A stretch of DNA of 64,000 nucleotides from Betaproteobacteria bacterium (GCA_021298815.1 JAJTHE010000040.1:3999-67998); one strand, 5' to 3'. Positions 47,906-56,331 are shown, counted from the stretch's first letter. Translations and numbers: made by a program. The notes: generated by a model not told the origin, from the sequence alone.

Positions 47906-48766
47906 TCAGCCGGCGAATTCCGCGCTGGCGCTCAACGCGACCGCGCCGGTGTCGTCCTCCGCCCAGAGCTTCGCGCTGCGCCCGTCGGCCGACGGCTCGC
48001 CGCACAGGGTGATCGCCCGGTTGACGAACAGCGGGCGGACGTTGCGCGAGGCCATGTTGCGCAGCGGGCTCGATGCATGCGTGCGCGCCAGCTCGAACAC
48101 CAGCAGCGTGGTCAGGCCGCCGTTCATCACCAGCGCCGGATAACCCTCGGTGCCGGTCACGTACGGATGGTCGTAATGGATGCGGTGGCCGTTGAAGGTC
48201 AGCGCCGAATACCGGAACAGCATCACCGGGTCCGGCGTCACCACCTTCTTCCAGACCGCCGTGCCGGGCGCCGGCATCGGTACCGCCGGCGCCTTCGGTG
48301 CGGCCGGATCCGGTTCCTCGCGGTAGACGATGTCCTGTTCCTCGACCACCGCCAGCCCGCGCGGGCTGGAGATCTCGGTGCGCACCGTGACGAACACCAT
48401 CTGCCCAGACTTACCGACCTTCGGCGTGACGCTCTGGATCACCGATTCGCGCTTCGCCTCGTCGCCCACCCGCAGGTCGCCCTGGAACGTGATGCGCTTG
48501 CCGGCGAACATCCGCCGCGGCAGGGGTACCGGCGGCAGGAAGTCGCCACGCTGCGGATGCCCGTCCGGCCCGATCTGGGACTGGCGCACCACGCGCGGGA
48601 ACAGGATCGAGTGCCAGCCGATGGGCAGCACGTCGCCCGCCTTCGGGCGCGGATCGTCGCGGTCGAGCGTGCACGACAACCGGTGCACCGACGGCACGGT
48701 CACGTAGTCGATGTCGGATTCGCGGTTGCCGATCCACTCGGCGAGGCGGTCGAGGTCATGGGTCAT
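47906..48766 (-). CDS. FAS1-like/MaoC-N-type hot-dog dehydratase (acyl-CoA hydratase-like)
   Basis: Track ORF 47906..48790 trimmed to ATG 48766 (GAGGAG SD). The 286-aa double hot-dog-like layout (PIGWHSILFP..; ..FRYSALTFNGHRIHYD) fits my memory of HTD2/mesaconyl- or itaconyl-CoA hydratase-type proteins. Confidence 0.7.
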   Translation of the reverse strand: MTHDLDRLAEWIGNRESDIDYVTVPSVHRLSCTLDRDDPRPKAGDVLPIGWHSILFPRVVRQSQIGPDGHPQRGDFLPPVPLPRRMFAGKRITFQGDLRVGDEAKRESVIQSVTPKVGKSGQMVFVTVRTEISSPRGLAVVEEQDIVYREEPDPAAPKAPAVPMPAPGTAVWKKVVTPDPVMLFRYSALTFNGHRIHYDHPYVTGTEGYPALVMNGGLTTLLVFELARTHASSPLRNMASRNVRPLFVNRAITLCGEPSADGRSAKLWAEDDTGAVALSASAEFAG

Positions 48767-48861
48767 TGACTGCTCCTCTGTGCGTAACACTTCGTTTCAG
48801 TGCTTGCGGATCGTACACCGGAGGCGAATACTGTCGTCATTGCGGTCGCGGCCAGCGACGC

Positions 48862-48904
48862 AAGCAGCTTCGGCCGGGAGGGGCGACCCTGCCGGCTGCT
48901 TTTT
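48862..48904 (+). terminator. Canonical intrinsic terminator on the plus strand (imperfect GC-rich hairpin AAGCAGC..GCTGCTT followed by TTTTT)
   Basis: Read directly: AAGCAGCTTCGGCCGGGAGGGGCGACCCTGCCGGCTGCTTTTT. The T-run is on the plus strand although both flanking genes are on the minus strand. On the minus strand the hairpin follows the MCP stop but has no U-run. Confidence 0.45.
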
Positions 48905-48929
48905 GGGTGCCGCGCGGGGAAGCGCTCCC

Positions 48930-50453
48930 TCAGGCGCCCAACCGGTACTGGCCCACGGCATCGCCCAGCGCCTCCGCGGTCGCGCTCAGCTGCAGCGCAT
49001 CGCCGGCGATGGCGGTGGTCGCCTCGCGCGCCTGGCCGGTCATCGCGGCGATCCGCGCGACATGGCTGCTCATTGCGCCGGTCGCGCCGGCATGCTGCTC
49101 GAGCGCCGCGGCGATCTCGCGTACGCTGTCGCGGGCCTGCGCCGACTGCTCGCGGATCGCGCCGATCGTGGCGCCGGCGTCGCCGGCGTACGACAACCCG
49201 GCATCGACACGCTGCACCGCGTCGGCGATGCGCTCGGTCACCTCTGCCCGCACGACCATGATCTCCTCGATCATCCGGCTGATCTCGCCGGTCGAGCGCC
49301 CGGTCTCGTCGGACAGCTTGCGCACCTCGTCGGCGACCACCGCGAAGCCGCGGCCGGCGTCGCCGGCACGCGCTGCCTCGATCGCCGCGTTCAAGGCGAG
49401 CAGGTTGGTCTGCTCGGCGATATCCCGGATGATACGCACCACGTCCTGCACCGCGGCAGATTTCTCGCCCAGCGTCTCGACCACGGCAGCCGCTTCGTTC
49501 ACCGAGCGCGCCATCGAGCGCATCGAGCCCACGGCTTCCTCGATCACCGTCGCGCCGAGGGCGGCGCGCTGCGCCGACTGCTCGGCCGCGGTGCACGCCT
49601 GCTGCGCGCTCTGCGCGATGGTGTTCACCGAAGCGCCGATCTGGTCAACGGCGACCGCCGCGGCGCTTGCCGCCTGTGTCTGGTCGCTGCTGCCCTCCGC
49701 GATCCGGCGCGCCGAATCGGCAAGGGACGCCGATGCCGCAGCCATCTGGCGGGCGCTGCCGCCAGCGGTCTGCAGCGTCGACACCAGGCGCGACTGCATG
49801 CGCTCGAGCGCTGCGATCATCGGGCTGTCGGCCACGGCACGCTGGTCGAAGGCGTGGTCCAGCCGGCCCTCGGCCACGCTGCCGGCGAAGGCGACCGCCT
49901 GCTGGCTGCGTTCGACCATGCGCGCGAGCATCGTCGCCAGGTAGCAGAGTACGCCCGCCTCCACCACGACATAGGCGGCATGCAGCAGCACCCAGCCGAA
50001 ACCCTGGGCCTGCGGGAACACGTAGACGCCGAAGCCTGCGCGCTGCATCGCGTCGAAGCCGAGGTGGTGCAGGGCGATCACCGCGGCCGCGAACACCACC
50101 GGGCGCCAGTCGCAATACGCGAGCAGGAAGGCAAGCAGCACGAAGATGCCGAAGTGCATCTCGATCAGGCCTTGGCTGAGCTGGATCATCAGCGCGGAGA
50201 AGATCATCAGCGATGCGGCCACGGCCAGCCGCACCGCCAGGCTGCCGGGAGCGGCGAGGTACAGGCCGAGGGGAACCGCGAGCGCCGGGATGCCGACCAT
50301 CAGCGCCTGGGCGAGCCCGCCCAGCGTCGCGGCCATGCCGACGCAGATCACCAGCAGCAGCATGCAGGTGGCGAGCATCAGGCGGTCGGTGCTGCGCTGC
50401 AGGTCCTGCAGCAGGTCGGGCCCTGGCGCGCCCGGCGGGGATGCGGTCGTCAT
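48930..50453 (-). CDS. Methyl-accepting chemotaxis protein with polytopic (about 6 TM) N-terminal membrane sensor
   Basis: Track ORF 48930..50651 trimmed to ATG 50453. The conserved signalling hairpin is [38 protein letters not shown]. The N-terminal 200 aa is hydrophobic, with His residues inside predicted helices. Confidence 0.85.
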
Positions 50454-50463
50454 CGAAGGACTT

Positions 50464-50613
50464 TCATCGCAATGCCGCGCAGGTGACGCCGCGCAGCCGG
50501 TTCTCGGATTCCATGTCCCACAGCAGGACGGCGGTCGTGCCCAGCCACAGGAAGAACAGGAACACCAGGAAACGCGGGGAGATGGCGCGTCCCGGCAACA
50601 GCGGTGTTTGCAT
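50464..50613 (-). CDS. 49-aa single-TM small protein (hypothetical), immediately upstream of the MCP
   Basis: Not in the track because it is below the size cut-off. My translation is [55 protein letters not shown] lies 8 nt before ATG 50613. Third-codon positions are mostly G/C, like the real genes here. The stop lies 10 nt before the MCP ATG. Confidence 0.4.
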
Positions 50614-50691
50614 GGAATGCGCTCCACCCGACGTTGCCGTATTAACGGCACGCCCGGCAGCGGCTTTAGCGCGGCATCGCGCGCGCCATTC

Positions 50692-51648
50692 TCACTCGGC
50701 AGCGATGCCCGCGTTGCGGATCAGCGTGCCCCAGTAGGACAGTTCCTGGGCGATGGTACGGGCGAAGGCCGCGGGATCCTGGTACTGCGCGAAAGCCCCC
50801 TGCGAATCGGCCTTTTCCCGGAATTCCCTGCCCTCGACGATGCGCCGGACCTCCTCCGACAGCCGCCTGACCACGTCCGACGGCATGCCAGCGGGGCCGA
50901 GCAGGCCGAACCAGGACGCCACTTCATATTTCGGGAAGCCGGCCTCGGCTGCGGTCGGCACGTTCGGCATCGAAGGATGCCGGTTGCGCGCCGCATAGGC
51001 GATCGCACGCAGCTTGCCCGCCTGTACCTGCTGGATCACGCCGGGCGGCGTGGTGATGAAGATGTCGATGTTGCCGCCCATCAGGTCGAGCACCGCCGGC
51101 CCGCTGCCCTTGTACGGCACATGGATCATCTTCCCGCCGACCTGCTGCTCGAGGATCTCGCCGGCCAGGTGCTGGATCGATCCCGGCCCGGAGGAACCGT
51201 AGCTGACCTTGCCCGGGTTGGCACGGATCAGCTCGGCCAGTTCCTTCATCGTGGCCACCTTCGTCGACGGCCCCACGGCGATCACCTGCGGTGCGTAAAG
51301 CGCCATCGCGATCGGCGTGAAGTCCTTCACCGGGTCCCACTTCAGGCCCTTGAACAGGTGCGGATTGCCGACATGGAAGCCCGAGAACTGCAGCAGCAGC
51401 GTATGCCCGTCGGGTTTTGCCCGTGCGACCATCTCGGTGCCGATGTTGCCGGACGCGCCGCCGCGATTCTCGACGATCACCGGCTGGCCGAGTGCCTTCG
51501 CCAGCGGCTCCTGCAGCAGGCGGGCGGTGAAGTCGGTGGAACCGCCGGGAACGGTGGCGACGATCATCGTGACCGGCCGGGACGGGAACGATTGCGCCCA
51601 GGCAGCCGTCGACAGGCCCAGCAGCAGGGCGGCGATCATCCGTTTCAT
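50692..51648 (-). CDS. Bug/TctC-family periplasmic solute-binding protein
   Basis: 319-aa track ORF (50692..51651); ATG 51648 is preferred because GGAGGAG SD lies 6 nt upstream. [39 protein letters not shown]. Confidence 0.9.
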
Positions 51649-51732
51649 CACTTGCTCCTCCGGTGGATGCCTGGCGCCGGACTGTGCCGTCCGGACATCG
51701 CAGGGCGAATCAGGGTAAGGACCAGGGCACGC

Positions 51733-52134
51733 TCAGGATTCCACGTAGCGGGAAATCTCGATCAGGTTGAGGTCCGGATCGCGAACATACACCGAGCGGA
51801 TGCGCCCGGTGGCCCCGGTGCGCGGACCCGGGCCTTCCTCGATCGGGACGCCCGCGGCCTGCAGGCGCTCGACCACCGCCTCGAGCGGGATCGAGGCGAT
51901 GAAGCAGAGGTCGAGCGCGCCCGGCACCGGCAGGTGCGCCCGCGGCTCGAACTCGGCACCCTTCACGTGCAGGTTGATCTTCTGGCTGCCGAAGCGGAAC
52001 GCGATCCGACCCTCGGGCAACTGCGGCGACACGCCGAAGCGCTCCAGTTCCATGCCGAGCACGCGCGTGTAGAAGTCGATCGCGCGCTCGGGGTCGGTGG
52101 TGGTCAGCACGAGATGGTCGAGGTGGTCGATCAT
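51733..52134 (-). CDS. VOC-family (glyoxalase/bleomycin-resistance/dioxygenase fold) protein
   Basis: Track ORF 51733..52662 trimmed to ATG 52134, which overlaps the upstream stop (ATGA). MIDHLDHLVLTTTDPERAIDFYTRVLGMEL. 133 aa. Confidence 0.8.
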   Translation of the reverse strand: MIDHLDHLVLTTTDPERAIDFYTRVLGMELERFGVSPQLPEGRIAFRFGSQKINLHVKGAEFEPRAHLPVPGALDLCFIASIPLEAVVERLQAAGVPIEEGPGPRTGATGRIRSVYVRDPDLNLIEISRYVES

Positions 52135-53105
52135 GGCGCCTCCGCGGCGCGGGCGCGCGCCTGCGCGACCGAGGCCGGCACCGGGTGCAGGTCCAGGCGG
52201 CGCCCCGCCTTCACCACCTGCCCCGGCAGTTCGTGCCCGACCAAGGCGCCGAGCCGGCGTGCGCAGGCGAGCAGCGCCGGCAGGTCCACGCCCGTGCCGA
52301 AACCTTCCAGCGCCAGCATGTGCGCGAGGTCTTCGGTGCACACGTTGCCGGTCGCACCCGGCGCATACGGGCACCCGCCCAGGCCGCCGAGCGACGCATC
52401 GAAACGGTCCACGCCCGCGTGCAGCGCGGCCAGCGCATTCGCCAGGCCCATGCCGCGCGTGTTGTGCACGTGGAGGGTGAGCATCGCCTGCGGGAAGCGC
52501 GTGCGAAACGCGGTACACAGCGCCGCCACCTGCGAGGGATACGCCATGCCGGTGGTGTCGCAGAGGGTGACCCCGCGCGCGCCGGCGTCGATGAAGGTCG
52601 CCGCGAAGCCGAGCACCTCGGCCGCCTGCACGTCGCCTTCCATCGGGCAGCCGAAGCTGCACGACAGCGAGACGTTCACCGGCACCTGCGCGTCGGCGGA
52701 CAGGCGGACCACCTGCAGCAGCTGGGCTACCGAGGCCGCGCGCCCCATCCGCAGGTTGGCCAGGTTGTGCGTCTCCGAGCAGGACATCACCAGGTTGAAT
52801 TCGTCCGGCGGCGCGGCCAGCGCGCGCTCCACGCCGCGCACGTTCGGCACCAGCACCGTGTACTCGACGCCTGGCACGCGCGCGATGCGGCGCATCACCT
52901 CGTCGGCGTCGGCCAGCATCGGTATCGCCTTCGGGGAGGTGAACGAGGTGACTTCGATCTTCGCCAGCCCGGTACGCGACAGCGCATCGACGAAGGCCAC
53001 CTTGTCGTCGGTAGCGACGAAGGTGGCTTCCGCCTGCAGGCCGTCGCGCATCGCGACGTCCTGCAGGTACACCCGGCGGCCCGGTTCGTTCGCGTCGCCG
53101 TCCAT
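52131..53105 (-). CDS. Hydroxymethylglutaryl-CoA lyase-like (DRE-TIM) C-C lyase
   Basis: Track ORF 52131..53438 trimmed to ATG 53105, a 1-nt overlap with the upstream stop. VYLQDVAMRDGLQ, TLHVHNTRGMGLANALAALHAGV and GGLGGCPYAPGATGNVCTEDL are present. Confidence 0.88.
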   Translation of the reverse strand: MDGDANEPGRRVYLQDVAMRDGLQAEATFVATDDKVAFVDALSRTGLAKIEVTSFTSPKAIPMLADADEVMRRIARVPGVEYTVLVPNVRGVERALAAPPDEFNLVMSCSETHNLANLRMGRAASVAQLLQVVRLSADAQVPVNVSLSCSFGCPMEGDVQAAEVLGFAATFIDAGARGVTLCDTTGMAYPSQVAALCTAFRTRFPQAMLTLHVHNTRGMGLANALAALHAGVDRFDASLGGLGGCPYAPGATGNVCTEDLAHMLALEGFGTGVDLPALLACARRLGALVGHELPGQVVKAGRRLDLHPVPASVAQARARAAEAP

Positions 53106-54379
53106 CAGCCCGCCTGCGTGCCGGTCGCGATCACCTTCCGCGCCACCAGCTCGGCGATCGCCCCTTCGCTGATGCCCAGCTCGCGCAGGACTTCGGCGGT
53201 ATGGCTGCCCAGGGTCGGCGCCAGCGTGGACAGCCGCCCGGGCGTCGCCGACAGCTTCGGCACGACACCGGGCACGTCGAGCGGATAACCCTCGGCCGTG
53301 GCGATGCGCCGGATCATCCCGCGTGCCTGGTAGTGCGGATCCTCGGCGATATCGCGCGCGGTATAGATACGCCCTGCCGGCACGCGCGCACGGTTGAGGC
53401 CGTCGAGCACCTCGGCCAGCGGCCGTGCCGCCGTCCATGCGCCGATCGCCGCGTCGAGTTCCGCCGCCCGCTTCGCGCGCCCGTCATTGGACGCGAGGTC
53501 CGGCGCGTCGCGCAGGTCCGGGCGTCCGATCAGGTCCATCAGCCGGCGGTAGATGCTGTCGCCATTGCCACCGATCAGAACCGCACCGTCGGCGCAGCGG
53601 TAGGCATTGCTGGGCGCGATGCCGGGCAGCGCACTGCCGGCCGGTTCACGCACCGCCCCGAAGGCGCTGTATTCGGGCAGCAGGCTCTCCATGCAGTTGA
53701 ACACCGCCTCGTACAGCGCGACGTCGATCACCTGCCCCCTGCCGGCGGCGCCGGACGCCTTGCGGTGGTGGAGCGCGAGCAGCACGCCGATCACCCCGTG
53801 CAGCGCGGCGAGCGTGTCTCCGATCGACACGCCCACCCGCACCGGCAGCCGGCCCGGTTCGCCCGACAGGTGGCGCAGCCCACCCATCGCCTCGGCGATG
53901 ACGCCGAACCCCGGGCGGTCGGCATACGGTCCATCCTGCCCGTAGCCCGAGATGCGCAGCATCACCAGGCCCGGGTTGTCGCGAGCCAGCGCCTCGTAGC
54001 CCAGTCCCCAGCCCTCGAGCGTGCCCGGCTTGAAGTTCTCGATCACCACGTCGGCCTCCGCGGCGAGGCGGCGGCACAGGTCCTGTCCTTCGGCGCAACG
54101 CAGGTCGATCGCGATCGAGCGCTTGTTGCGCGACTGCACCTGCCACCACACCGAAGTGCCGTTCTTCAGCATCCGCCACTTGCGCAGCGGATCGCCACTG
54201 CCGGGCGGCTCGACCTTGATCACGTCCGCACCGAAATCGGCCAGCATCTTGCCGGCGAACGGCCCGGCGATGAGCTGGCCCAGCTCGAGCACCTTCAGGC
54301 CGGCCAGCGCCATCGGGGGAGCGGTGTCCGCGCCGGCCGGGCCGGCCGCGGCGGTTGCGGACGAAGGGGTGTCGGACAT
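53105..54379 (-). CDS. Family III CoA-transferase (CaiB/BaiF)
   Basis: Track ORF 53105..56536 trimmed to ATG 54379; ATG 54313 (MALAGLKVLELG) is an alternative. LAGLKVLELGQLIAGPFAGKMLADFGADVIKVEPP is present. Confidence 0.85.
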   Translation of the reverse strand: MSDTPSSATAAAGPAGADTAPPMALAGLKVLELGQLIAGPFAGKMLADFGADVIKVEPPGSGDPLRKWRMLKNGTSVWWQVQSRNKRSIAIDLRCAEGQDLCRRLAAEADVVIENFKPGTLEGWGLGYEALARDNPGLVMLRISGYGQDGPYADRPGFGVIAEAMGGLRHLSGEPGRLPVRVGVSIGDTLAALHGVIGVLLALHHRKASGAAGRGQVIDVALYEAVFNCMESLLPEYSAFGAVREPAGSALPGIAPSNAYRCADGAVLIGGNGDSIYRRLMDLIGRPDLRDAPDLASNDGRAKRAAELDAAIGAWTAARPLAEVLDGLNRARVPAGRIYTARDIAEDPHYQARGMIRRIATAEGYPLDVPGVVPKLSATPGRLSTLAPTLGSHTAEVLRELGISEGAIAELVARKVIATGTQAG

Positions 54380-54429
54380 CGAGGCGCCATTGTCGGTTGC
54401 GACAGGCGCAAGCGTAACACCGGACAGGG

Positions 54430-56331
54430 TCACTCCCCCCCGGCGGCCAGCACCCGGTTGCGCCCCTGGCGCTTGGCCTCGTACATCGCCTCGTCTGCCC
54501 GGCCGAGCGCCTGCGGGCCGGTCTCGCCGGGCCGCATGCAGGCGACCCCGGCACTGAACGTGATCAGTACCTTGTCGTTGTTGTGCAGGAAGAACTGGCG
54601 CGTCAGCTCGCGCTGCAGCCGCTCGACGACCATCTTCGCATCGGGCAGCGGCGTCTCGGGCAGCAGCAGGACGAACTCCTCGCCACCGTAGCGGCCGATG
54701 GTGTCCGACGGGCGCAGCATCGGACGCACCACGCCCACCAGGTGGCGCAGGGCCTCGTCGCCGGCATGGTGGCCGAGGCGGTCGTTCAGGTTCTTGAAGT
54801 TGTCGAGGTCGATCACCGCGAAGCACAGATCGGAACGGTAGCGCTGGGCGCGCGAGGCCTCGCGCTCGACCGCCTCGTCGAGCCCGCGCCGGTTCAACGC
54901 ACCGGTCAGCGCATCCTCGCGCAGCGCCGCGCTGACCCGGGAGAGTTCCGCCTCGAGCTCGGCCACCTTGGCGCGCGCCCGTTCCGCCTGCTCGCTCACG
55001 CCCAGCACGTCGTCGCGCGAGCGCGTGGCATCGACCTGCATCTTGCGGATGTCGACCATCAGGTCGTCGAGCACGTCGCGCAGGCCATCGACGTTGTCGG
55101 TCACCCGCACGCGCTCGGTGTAGACGACGATGCGCGCCTCGTAATCGACTGCGCTCTGCGCCATCTCGCCCACCCGCTCGACGAACACGCCGATCAGTTC
55201 CTTCAGCGCGCGCTTCATCTCCTGCAGCGCGCCCTTGAGTGCCTGCTGGCGCTCCGCGGTCTCGCGGAACTGGGCCTGCGCATCGGCGAGCGAACGGGAA
55301 CTGGGCGGCTGCGCGACGGTGCGCCCGAGCAGCTGCACCTGCCCGCAGATCCACCGGTCGTCCTCCACCAGCTCGGCAAGGTTGGCCACCAGCATGCGTA
55401 CCAGCGTCATCGAGTCCTCGACGATCAGGCGCTGCTCGACCTGCATCAGCTCGGCCTCGCGCAGCGCATGGCCGATCGCGGTGTCGATCGCCCGGCAGTC
55501 GGCCGGCGTCGTCGCCGCACGCACCAGCGGCGGCAGCCGGGACACCGCGCCAGCCAGTTTCGGATGCCCGGAGACGCGTGGTGCCAGCTCGCGCTCGAAC
55601 ACGCCGGCGAGCAGGTCGCGCAGCGACTGCGCGAGGTCCTCGACCATCGGCAGCAGGGTCACCGCACCGGGTGCGACCGGCATCGCGGCAATGCCGTTGA
55701 ACACCGGCGATGCCTGCCATGCGGCCGGTGCCAGCGCTGCCGGCCCGGTCGTCGGCGGCGCGCCGGCGGACGCGCCGCCGGGCAGTGCACCAGCCGCGCC
55801 GGCAGGGGCGGCAGGGCCTGTCGCAGGCGCGGATCCGCTCGCCTCGACCCCGCGCTCGGCGCCGCCGTCGCCGTCGCGGTCCTCGTCGCCGGCCTCCACG
55901 AGCAGTGCGCCCGGTGCCGAGGGCAGCGACTCGCCCCATGACTTGACCAGCGCGGCGATCTTGTCGCCGAGCTGCGGGGAACGACGGAACTTGATCAGCA
56001 GGCGCTCCAGCCCGTCGCGCTTCTGGATCAGCGAAACGCCCGAATGACGCACCTCGAGCTGGCGCAGCAGGTCGCGGATCACCTGCGACCAGTCGGCACC
56101 CTCCGGCTCGGCCGGCGCCCCCGCCCCCGCGCCCGCGGCCGGTGTCGCGCCCGGATCGGCGACCACCATGGCCGGCGTGCCGGCGATCTCGGCGTACACG
56201 CGCACATAGTTCTCGGGGGTCGGGGCGATGCGGCGGCTGGCGAGCAGCTTCAGCGTCTCGCGCGCGAGTTCGCCCGGCGTGCGGGTTGCTGCAGCGGCGC
56301 TGCGGGGAGACGGGTTGGGCTGGGAGGACAT
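54430..56331 (-). CDS. GGDEF diguanylate cyclase with ~460-aa uncharacterised N-terminal region
   Basis: 633-aa track ORF. The C-terminal GGDEF domain has active site RYGGEEF and an RxxD I-site (RPSD) five residues upstream. The N-terminus is helical/coiled with Ala/Gly/Pro-rich low-complexity stretches. Confidence 0.85.
   Translation of the reverse strand: MSSQPNPSPRSAAAATRTPGELARETLKLLASRRIAPTPENYVRVYAEIAGTPAMVVADPGATPAAGAGAGAPAEPEGADWSQVIRDLLRQLEVRHSGVSLIQKRDGLERLLIKFRRSPQLGDKIAALVKSWGESLPSAPGALLVEAGDEDRDGDGGAERGVEASGSAPATGPAAPAGAAGALPGGASAGAPPTTGPAALAPAAWQASPVFNGIAAMPVAPGAVTLLPMVEDLAQSLRDLLAGVFERELAPRVSGHPKLAGAVSRLPPLVRAATTPADCRAIDTAIGHALREAELMQVEQRLIVEDSMTLVRMLVANLAELVEDDRWICGQVQLLGRTVAQPPSSRSLADAQAQFRETAERQQALKGALQEMKRALKELIGVFVERVGEMAQSAVDYEARIVVYTERVRVTDNVDGLRDVLDDLMVDIRKMQVDATRSRDDVLGVSEQAERARAKVAELEAELSRVSAALREDALTGALNRRGLDEAVEREASRAQRYRSDLCFAVIDLDNFKNLNDRLGHHAGDEALRHLVGVVRPMLRPSDTIGRYGGEEFVLLLPETPLPDAKMVVERLQRELTRQFFLHNNDKVLITFSAGVACMRPGETGPQALGRADEAMYEAKRQGRNRVLAAGGE

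Follow-up and report, generated by a model that had tools for sequence, protein, structure and literature searches.

The gene considered here encodes a methyl-accepting chemotaxis protein (MCP) and lies at 48930..50453 on the minus strand of a 64,000-nucleotide stretch of DNA from a Betaproteobacteria bacterium (GCA_021298815.1, JAJTHE010000040.1:3999-67998), which we call the window. The N-terminal part of the protein is predicted to form a bundle of six transmembrane (TM) helices in place of a ligand-binding domain in the periplasm, and this bundle belongs to a very large family of sensor domains with a conserved cluster of histidine and glutamate residues. HtrVIII, an aerotaxis transducer of haloarchaea, probably belongs to the same family. 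We propose that the window protein is a class III MCP of the flagellar regulon with a six-helix input of the HtrVIII type, in which the cluster binds a redox-active or gas-binding cofactor and thereby directs aerotaxis or energy taxis; to this explanation as a whole we give about an even chance.

The six-helix domain (residues 1-185; 49899..50453, minus strand) was delimited using hydropathy, AlphaFold2 (AF2) models, and the count of Lys and Arg residues. Kyte-Doolittle hydropathy gave six hydrophobic segments in the N-terminal region. Two AF2 models, one of the domain alone (predicted local distance difference test score, pLDDT, of 84.8; predicted template modelling score, pTM, of 0.79) and one of residues 1-300 (pLDDT 91.5), agreed on the helices, which were predicted at residues 14-44, 47-67, 72-92, 97-113, 116-138, and 152-194, with loops of 2, 4, 4, 2, and 13 residues between them. 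The longest loop, located at ~134-151 by hydropathy, has only ~13-17 residues and, therefore, leaves no room for a periplasmic domain. As the signalling domain must be cytoplasmic and as six Lys and Arg residues fall on the predicted cytoplasmic side versus one on the periplasmic side, the N-terminus was placed inside the cell, and so was the C-terminus of the domain. Residues 1-201 had no match in Pfam or NCBIfam, the MCP models of which cover the cytoplasmic, C-terminal part alone. The PAS, Cache, 4HB, globin, and hemerythrin sensor domains were absent from the window protein, in which MCPsignal was the only Pfam match at E <= 1e-3, and also according to NCBIfam. A reading made earlier from the sequence alone (the sequence-only reading) had described 49850-50453, i.e., residues 1-201, as a polytopic sensor of about six hydrophobic segments joined by short loops, with no periplasmic domain of useful size and no PAS or Cache domain. 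The hydropathy plot, the models, and the domain searches bore out this description, and the three peptides quoted in it were found at residues 96-109, 122-134, and 153-167. With six helices and no periplasmic ligand-binding domain, the protein belongs to the class III chemoreceptors, a topology with a variable number of TM segments and without such a domain (Lacal et al. 2010, as cited in PMC13401364).

The same reading had the linker leading directly into the signalling hairpin, and this point has to be corrected, since a HAMP-like helix-connector-helix intervenes. In the AF2 model of residues 1-300, the TM6 helix continues unbroken to residue 194 and is followed by a nine-residue connector (195-203) and by a second long helix from residue 211. 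Relatives carry a HAMP-type "(I/V)(A/G)xGDLT" motif at the position of the connector, in the aligned form "G(D/R)L(T/D)". From the AF2 secondary structure and this aligned motif, residues ~177-232 (49758..49925, minus strand) are a predicted HAMP-like module between the membrane and the hairpin. Pfam HAMP models gave no match to the window protein at E <= 10, while further downstream HAMP units of longer relatives do score with the Pfam HAMP model. The MCP signalling domain PF00015 with its conserved hairpin tip occupies residues 289-471 (49041..49589, minus strand; Pfam E = 5.5e-39).

The polar cluster of TM4-TM6 (49959..50162, minus strand) is conserved at 90-100% in 165 representatives of the clade of the window protein, namely the best and mutually diverse ones, mostly <=50% identical. 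Residues G95, F101, F104, H130, and H158 are present in 100% of them, E98, H100, Q137, and Y113 in 99%, H129 and M83 in 98%, D115 in 97%, and R75 in 96%. E165 reaches 90% and is mostly Gln otherwise, while H91 and H89 are found in 74% and 41%, respectively. In a first alignment of 40 relatives, E98, H129, H130, and Q137 were invariant and H100 and H158 almost invariant. The sequence-only reading had named the lack of conservation of its four His residues among homologues as a finding that would speak against it; the survey showed them to be 98-100% conserved. The cluster codons of the window gene, all on the minus strand, are E98 at 50160-50162, H100 at 50154-50156, H129 at 50067-50069, H130 at 50064-50066, Q137 at 50043-50045, H158 at 49980-49982, and E165 at 49959-49961. 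At positions 89 and 91, the window protein has Met and Gln, as do its close orthologues, and all of them so possess a four-His version of the cluster. In the predicted topology, Q91, E98, H100, H129/H130, Q137, and H158 are at a distance of ~1-7 residues from the periplasmic ends of the helices, and E165 is approximately at mid-membrane; the cluster is thus shown by the model to occupy the periplasmic half of TM3-TM6.

A second clade, which includes haloarchaeal MCPs and GGDEF proteins, retains part of this pattern. There, G95, H100, F101, F104, Y113, W116, and H130 are conserved at 100%, E98 at 99%, and H158 at ~98%, and additional conserved positions are H102 (99%), H91 (91%), H129 (87%), and H144 (84%), the last of these being a loop residue; haloarchaea have E, Q, or T in place of H129. 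M83, Q137, and E165 are unconserved in this clade. The universal core, as far as the two alignments indicate, is E98, H100, H130, and H158 (three His and one Glu), and the additional His and Glu residues are clade-specific.

The extent of the family was determined by profile searches. A search with residues 1-210 had yielded the 40 relatives already mentioned, mostly fragments labelled "chemotaxis protein". A profile of 18 trimmed domains, compared with 1.84 billion representatives of 50% identity clusters, gave 5,568 matches at E <= 1e-3, 3,286 at E <= 1e-10, and 561 at E <= 1e-30. The protein in the window is unremarkable within this very large sensor family, which is unnamed and biochemically uncharacterised. 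The hairpin-tip motif was present in at least 105 of the 115 full-length top representatives, which identifies these as MCPs of ~500 aa; longer relatives contain inserted PAS domains or arrays of HAMP units, and a single one proved to be a hybrid histidine kinase. A total of 303 genomic loci were confirmed and, among the matches listed, all belonged to Beta-, Gamma-, or Alphaproteobacteria, including the genera Methyloversatilis, Thiobacillus, Thauera, Azoarcus, Zoogloea, Steroidobacter, Methylomonas, Castellaniella, Polaromonas, Massilia, and Aquipseudomonas.

A tblastn search of plasmids added MCPs from Pseudoalteromonas, Vibrio, Rhizobium, and Komagataeibacter, as well as a GGDEF-EAL protein of Acidobacteriota, a GAF protein of Bacteroidota, and an MCP of the haloarchaeon Halobaculum limi. 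The hidden Markov model (HMM) of the family matched the last three at E values of 1e-17 to 1e-28, the value for the Halobaculum MCP being 1e-17. When the Halobaculum domain was used as the query, the second clade was obtained. It consists mainly of ~355-aa GGDEF cyclases but also of PAS, HisKA, and HisKA_3 kinases and MCPs, from Halobacterium, Haloplanus, Actinobacteria, and Chloroflexota. The hhalign comparison of the two clades gave a probability of 99.6% and E = 5e-24 over 165 columns, i.e., all six helices. Pfam gave no meaningful match for 55 family members. The domain is portable over MCP, GGDEF, GGDEF-EAL, GAF, PAS, and histidine-kinase outputs, which argues that it is a sensor and not an anchor; these comparisons show what appears to be a portable sensor module used on several output types in Bacteria and haloarchaea. 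No conserved neighbour gene was found among 80 genomic loci, and the six-helix domain therefore probably senses alone, without a partner protein. The context around one member of the GGDEF clade was uninformative.

Near-stand-alone six-helix proteins of 190-250 aa, annotated as "hypothetical protein", were also encountered on large contigs of Paraburkholderia, Pseudomonas, Pigmentiphaga, and Aquitalea (P0079, P0207, P0212, P0224, and P0235), and a similar one on the P. aeruginosa plasmid NZ_CP083369.1. Such proteins could be the domain occurring by itself, or the products of MCP genes that have been truncated.

The haloarchaeal members probably connect the family with a receptor whose stimulus is known. 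In Halobacterium, Haloplanus, and Halobaculum, the MCPs with the six-helix domain have ~620-680 aa. HtrVIII (Htr8, OE3167F) is the aerotaxis transducer of Halobacterium salinarum (Brooun et al. 1998, as cited in PMC13401364 and PMC3579733). According to a proteomics paper, it is the only one of the 18 transducers of H. salinarum with six TM helices, and its attractant is O2. A 2026 review of aerotaxis treats HtrVIII as an archaeal and structurally unique receptor, ascribes to its six TM segments a homology with the sites at which cytochrome c oxidase binds haem, and states that they "likely bind haem". Since HtrVIII is the only six-TM Htr protein in H. salinarum and since genomes of Halobacterium sp. 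encode an MCP of ~630-660 aa with the domain, we infer that HtrVIII has its orthologues in the haloarchaeal members and a bacterial relative of its sensor in the domain of the window protein. The archaeal HtrVIII appears to be the only family member that has been studied. The sequence-only reading had assigned the receptor to an uncharacterised class and had thereby overlooked this precedent.

Two of these haloarchaeal genes are split in the assemblies: the MCP of Halobacterium sp. KA-4 into open reading frames (ORFs) of 291 and 367 aa (L086, 7001-8895) and that of Haloplanus into ORFs of 310 and 361 aa (L085, 7001-8985), the two ORFs overlapping in each case. The downstream ORFs hold the HAMP motif and the MCP tip, while the upstream parts are labelled "hypothetical protein". 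The split is a frameshift or an assembly error; joined, the parts give MCPs of ~630-670 aa. On the Halobaculum limi plasmid NZ_CP120469.1 (L081, 205-5775), the MCP homologue is located between a gene for a 765-aa "cbb3-type cytochrome c oxidase subunit I" and nirK. We take the 765 residues of this protein to be the size of a quinol-dependent NO reductase (qNOR-like). This gene context hints at nitric oxide (NO) or O2 as the stimulus.

The window gene itself was examined for its start, its constraint, and its promoter. The ORF list of the window contains a 573-codon, GTG-started ORF at 48930..50651 (minus strand), which encloses the MCP. We took the ATG at 50453 as the start, which gives a complete gene for a protein of 507 aa plus the stop codon, because orthologues of 507-509 aa align from residue 1 and because a sigma-28-type promoter is located inside the longer GTG ORF. 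Compared with its four syntenic orthologues in genomes of uncultured Burkholderiales/Betaproteobacteria (81-86% nucleotide identity over 3-12 kb), the gene had a ratio of non-synonymous to synonymous substitution rates (dN/dS) of 0.10-0.21, for the whole gene and likewise for the N-terminal 183 residues, from which we conclude that it is real and constrained. The promoter-like site of the sigma-28 (FliA) type, TAAA-N15-GCCGTTAA, lies at 50642..50668 on the minus strand, ~190 nt upstream of the MCP ATG. This motif has no other match in the window, where 0.04 would be expected by chance. It is likewise present upstream of the orthologue in locus L004, and upstream of 8 of 78 family loci versus 0.22 expected. 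The scans for sigma-70 promoters and terminators near the MCP gene found nothing. The sigma-28-type site indicates that the window MCP is likely to be a genuine chemoreceptor of the flagellar regulon.

In the mechanism that we propose, the invariant cluster in the outer-leaflet half of the bundle would bind a redox-active or gas-binding cofactor, with E98 and H100 at the periplasmic start of TM4, H129 and H130 in TM5, Q137 in the TM5-6 loop, and H158 and E165 in TM6. TM6 would be rearranged when O2 or NO binds or when the oxidation state changes. In the models, TM6 with H158 and E165 is shown as one unbroken helix with the first helix of the HAMP-like unit; it could thus pass the signal on through the signalling hairpin to the control of CheA, and the outcome would be aerotaxis or energy taxis. 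The phenotype of HtrVIII is the reason why O2 or redox (energy) taxis is our best guess. The energy-taxis idea of the sequence-only reading gains support from the homology to the haloarchaeal six-helix MCPs (hhalign, 99.6%) together with the identity of HtrVIII as an O2 receptor. Its view of His pairs as typical ligands of haem or metals fared less well with regard to haem, as only H130 of the HH pair is universal and three His with one Glu suit a non-haem metal at least equally well. On the whole, its observation was confirmed and its interpretation partly supported. We slightly favour a non-haem metal (Fe or Cu) over haem as the putative cofactor. The three-His-one-Glu core, together with the His-to-Glu/Gln/Asn replacements at the variable positions, speaks for a non-haem Fe, Cu, or Zn site over a bis-His haem, and the core would suit a non-haem metal no less than haem, while haem with a single axial His is still conceivable. 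In a more specific version, which we consider doubtful, the bundle would house a non-haem metal centre, set in the membrane and of a kind not described before, that binds O2 or NO directly; its core of three His and one Glu would be extended to 4-7 His and 1-2 Glu depending on the clade.

Several points weigh against the cofactor and aerotaxis explanation. The orthology with HtrVIII is inferred, and no protein named Htr8 was among the matches of three protein searches. In the literature found, the haem of HtrVIII is a proposal, and the stimulus of the bacterial members may by now differ from that of the archaeal receptor. The homology to cytochrome oxidase was not recovered: neither of the family profiles matched any oxidase chain of the Protein Data Bank (PDB) at E <= 10 and, by these searches and by Foldseek, there was no sequence or fold similarity to an oxidase subunit I-like site. 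The denitrification link suggested by the Halobaculum locus is not repeated at the loci of Halobacterium sp. KA-4 or Haloplanus. The neighbourhoods show no consistent link with respiration, the 80 proteobacterial loci having no common neighbour. Finally, H89 and H91, which are present in many relatives, are missing from the window protein and its close orthologues.

The cluster could also be the ligand site itself. Periplasmic Zn, Cu, Ni, or Fe ions, or protons in the case of pH taxis, would reach a shallow site at the outer surface, and its occupancy or protonation would shift TM6. Three His and one Glu make up a classic mononuclear metal-ion site, the His-to-Glu/Gln/Asn changes at H129, H91, and E165 are as at metal or proton sites, and the cluster, 1-7 residues from the periplasmic helix ends except for E165, is possibly accessible to solvent; the lack of a conserved gene for a cofactor-insertion partner near the 80 loci agrees with this as well. 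However, the likely archaeal orthologue answers O2 and not metals, E165 is located mid-membrane, the 80 loci show no link with genes for metal resistance or uptake, and the wide spread of the domain on cyclic di-GMP (c-di-GMP) and kinase outputs suggests a general physiological cue. We regard the sensing of metal ions or pH as unlikely, if worth keeping in mind. The invariant aromatic residues F101, F104, Y113, and W116, which accompany the His, Glu, and Gln side chains inside the bilayer, would rather suit an organic ligand borne by the membrane. Ubiquinone or ubiquinol, a lipid, a fatty acid, or a hydrophobic pollutant would bind between the helices, with His, Glu, Gln, Tyr, and Trp as hydrogen-bond partners, and would need no periplasmic access; with a quinone, the outcome would still be energy taxis, only without a metal. 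The six-helix kinases HrrS and ChrS, which bind haem via the aromatic residues of helix 4, offer a precedent, but their Y-x-x-F-P-x-F motif is missing here. In addition, 4-7 conserved His residues exceed a typical quinone or lipid pocket, and Foldseek against the PDB found no structural match to quinone- or lipid-binding membrane proteins, so that an organic ligand seems to us a rather poor prospect.

A further possibility is that the six helices do not sense at all. In that case, they would be a mere membrane anchor or a module for packing in the array, the polar residues would aid packing, and the stimulus would be perceived in the cytoplasmic part or via another protein. Any ligand or cofactor is so far putative, and some MCPs, such as Tsr, are known to sense via HAMP or cytoplasmic regions. 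Nevertheless, the conservation of His and charged residues inside the bilayer reaches nearly 100% in two deep clades, which span two domains of life, and MCP, GGDEF, EAL, GAF, PAS, and kinase outputs all make use of this one module. Moreover, Pfam recognises no sensor domain in the cytoplasmic part, and there is no conserved partner gene. A match to a known anchor without a cofactor, another finding that the sequence-only reading had named as adverse to it, was sought with Pfam, NCBIfam, profile searches of PDB sequences, and Foldseek, and none was found. The profiles of both clades gave only marginal, unrelated matches to PDB sequences; EccE3, MsbA, and OTOP2 (E 0.01-0.9) were rejected as such. 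Foldseek searches of the PDB with the two confident AF2 models gave no significant match (E >= 0.57; query-normalised TM-scores <= 0.29). The best matches were G-protein-coupled receptors, translin, and the Rv1625c cyclase, and the match to the six-TM Rv1625c was not counted as evidence. A role as anchor only is, in our opinion, very improbable.

The window gene is a solitary MCP, as no second one was found within the 64 kb, and its neighbours are metabolic: a TctC/Bug binding protein upstream and a MaoC/FAS1-like hydratase, followed by an aminotransferase, homoserine dehydrogenase, and threonine synthase, downstream. It lies inside a gene run (47906-54400, minus strand) that resembles an organic-acid CoA pathway and has the same arrangement in four related metagenome-assembled genomes. 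The upstream part of the run encodes a CoA-transferase of family III, an HMGL-like lyase, a glyoxalase/VOC protein, and the TctC/Bug protein, and the downstream part encodes the MaoC/FAS1-like hydratase; the run resembles itaconate or methylsuccinate-type catabolism. Adjacent to it, at 54430-56331 (minus strand), is a predicted ORF for a 633-aa product with a GGDEF domain at residues 473-626, the ~470 N-terminal residues of which have no Pfam match at 1e-5. Very long plus-strand ORFs (392-1008 aa) antisense to or overlapping genuine genes were seen at 48711-50486, 48766-49944, and 50146-53172. They are typical of DNA with ~70% GC and are not to be read as genes.

The significance of these results attaches to the family rather than to the window gene itself. 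Of all inputs to bacterial signalling, sensor domains embedded in the membrane are understood least, and the six-helix family comprises thousands of clusters, yet neither Pfam nor NCBIfam has a model for it, and there is neither a solved structure nor a similar one. The link with HtrVIII gives an orphan observation of 1998 a large family, residues to mutate (E98, H100, H130, and H158), and many tractable hosts, among them Pseudomonas syringae, Aquipseudomonas alcaligenes, Thauera, Azoarcus, Zoogloea, and Castellaniella, and the question of the ligand of the HtrVIII membrane domain becomes directly testable through the family. If a metal or haem centre is present, many annotations of an MCP or GGDEF protein of unknown input could be reinterpreted as oxygen, NO, or redox sensors. 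Should the centre be a non-haem one that binds O2 or NO, it would constitute, in Bacteria and Archaea, a new and very widespread class of gas or redox sensors that feeds two-component and c-di-GMP signalling as well as chemotaxis, and the oxygen sensing by HtrVIII would be explained.

Among the known systems, several receptors and kinases share single features with the family. Aer (PAS-FAD), Aer2 (PAS-haem), HemAT (globin), and DcrH (hemerythrin) are likewise MCPs for oxygen or redox state that have no ligand-binding domain in the periplasm; however, their sensors are soluble and cytoplasmic, and none of these occurs in the window protein. The MHYT domain (PF03707; CoxC, NbdA, MucR) is, like the six-helix domain, a polytopic membrane sensor with conserved His residues near the outer face and several output types. 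A bound metal has been proposed as its means of sensing O2, CO, or NO; for CoxC, in which His/Met motifs lie at the outer face, CO sensing has been shown to need copper. It offers a precedent for sensors of six to seven helices in which an outer-face His/Met cluster works via a metal. In contrast, its sequence is unrelated to that of the present family (no Pfam match for the window protein and 55 members), the M-H-Y-T repeats are absent here, and the arrangement of the conserved residues on the helices differs. HrrS and ChrS of Corynebacterium are histidine kinases that sense haem; their N-terminal sensor of six helices binds it within the membrane via aromatic residues of helix 4, and fusions to HisKA_3 kinases occur in the present family, too. 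Meanwhile, HrrS uses Y112, F115, and F118 with P116 and has no His cluster, and helix 4 of our family reads E-x-H-F-x-x-F; this comparison, made by motif, gave no support for homology.

The closest likeness is that to HtrVIII, which, as does the window protein, has six N-terminal TM segments, no extracellular domain, and, after the membrane part, an MCP signalling domain. The haloarchaeal six-TM MCPs are homologous to the window domain over all six helices and have E98, H100, H130, and H158 in common with it. They differ in the motif GG-x-IEAHFHFF with the extra H102, in the loop His H144, and in an N-terminal W-x-x-RHR, as well as in the absence of Q137, E165, and M83 and the replacement of H129 by E, Q, or T. 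Helix X of cytochrome oxidase reads H-F-H-Y. The "HFH" of IEAHFHFF in the second clade is presumably what Brooun et al. aligned with the oxidase. This oxidase-like motif is absent from helix 4 of the window protein, which reads E-M-H-F-G, and the clade of the window protein has G102 as its consensus instead of H102 of the haloarchaeal proteins.

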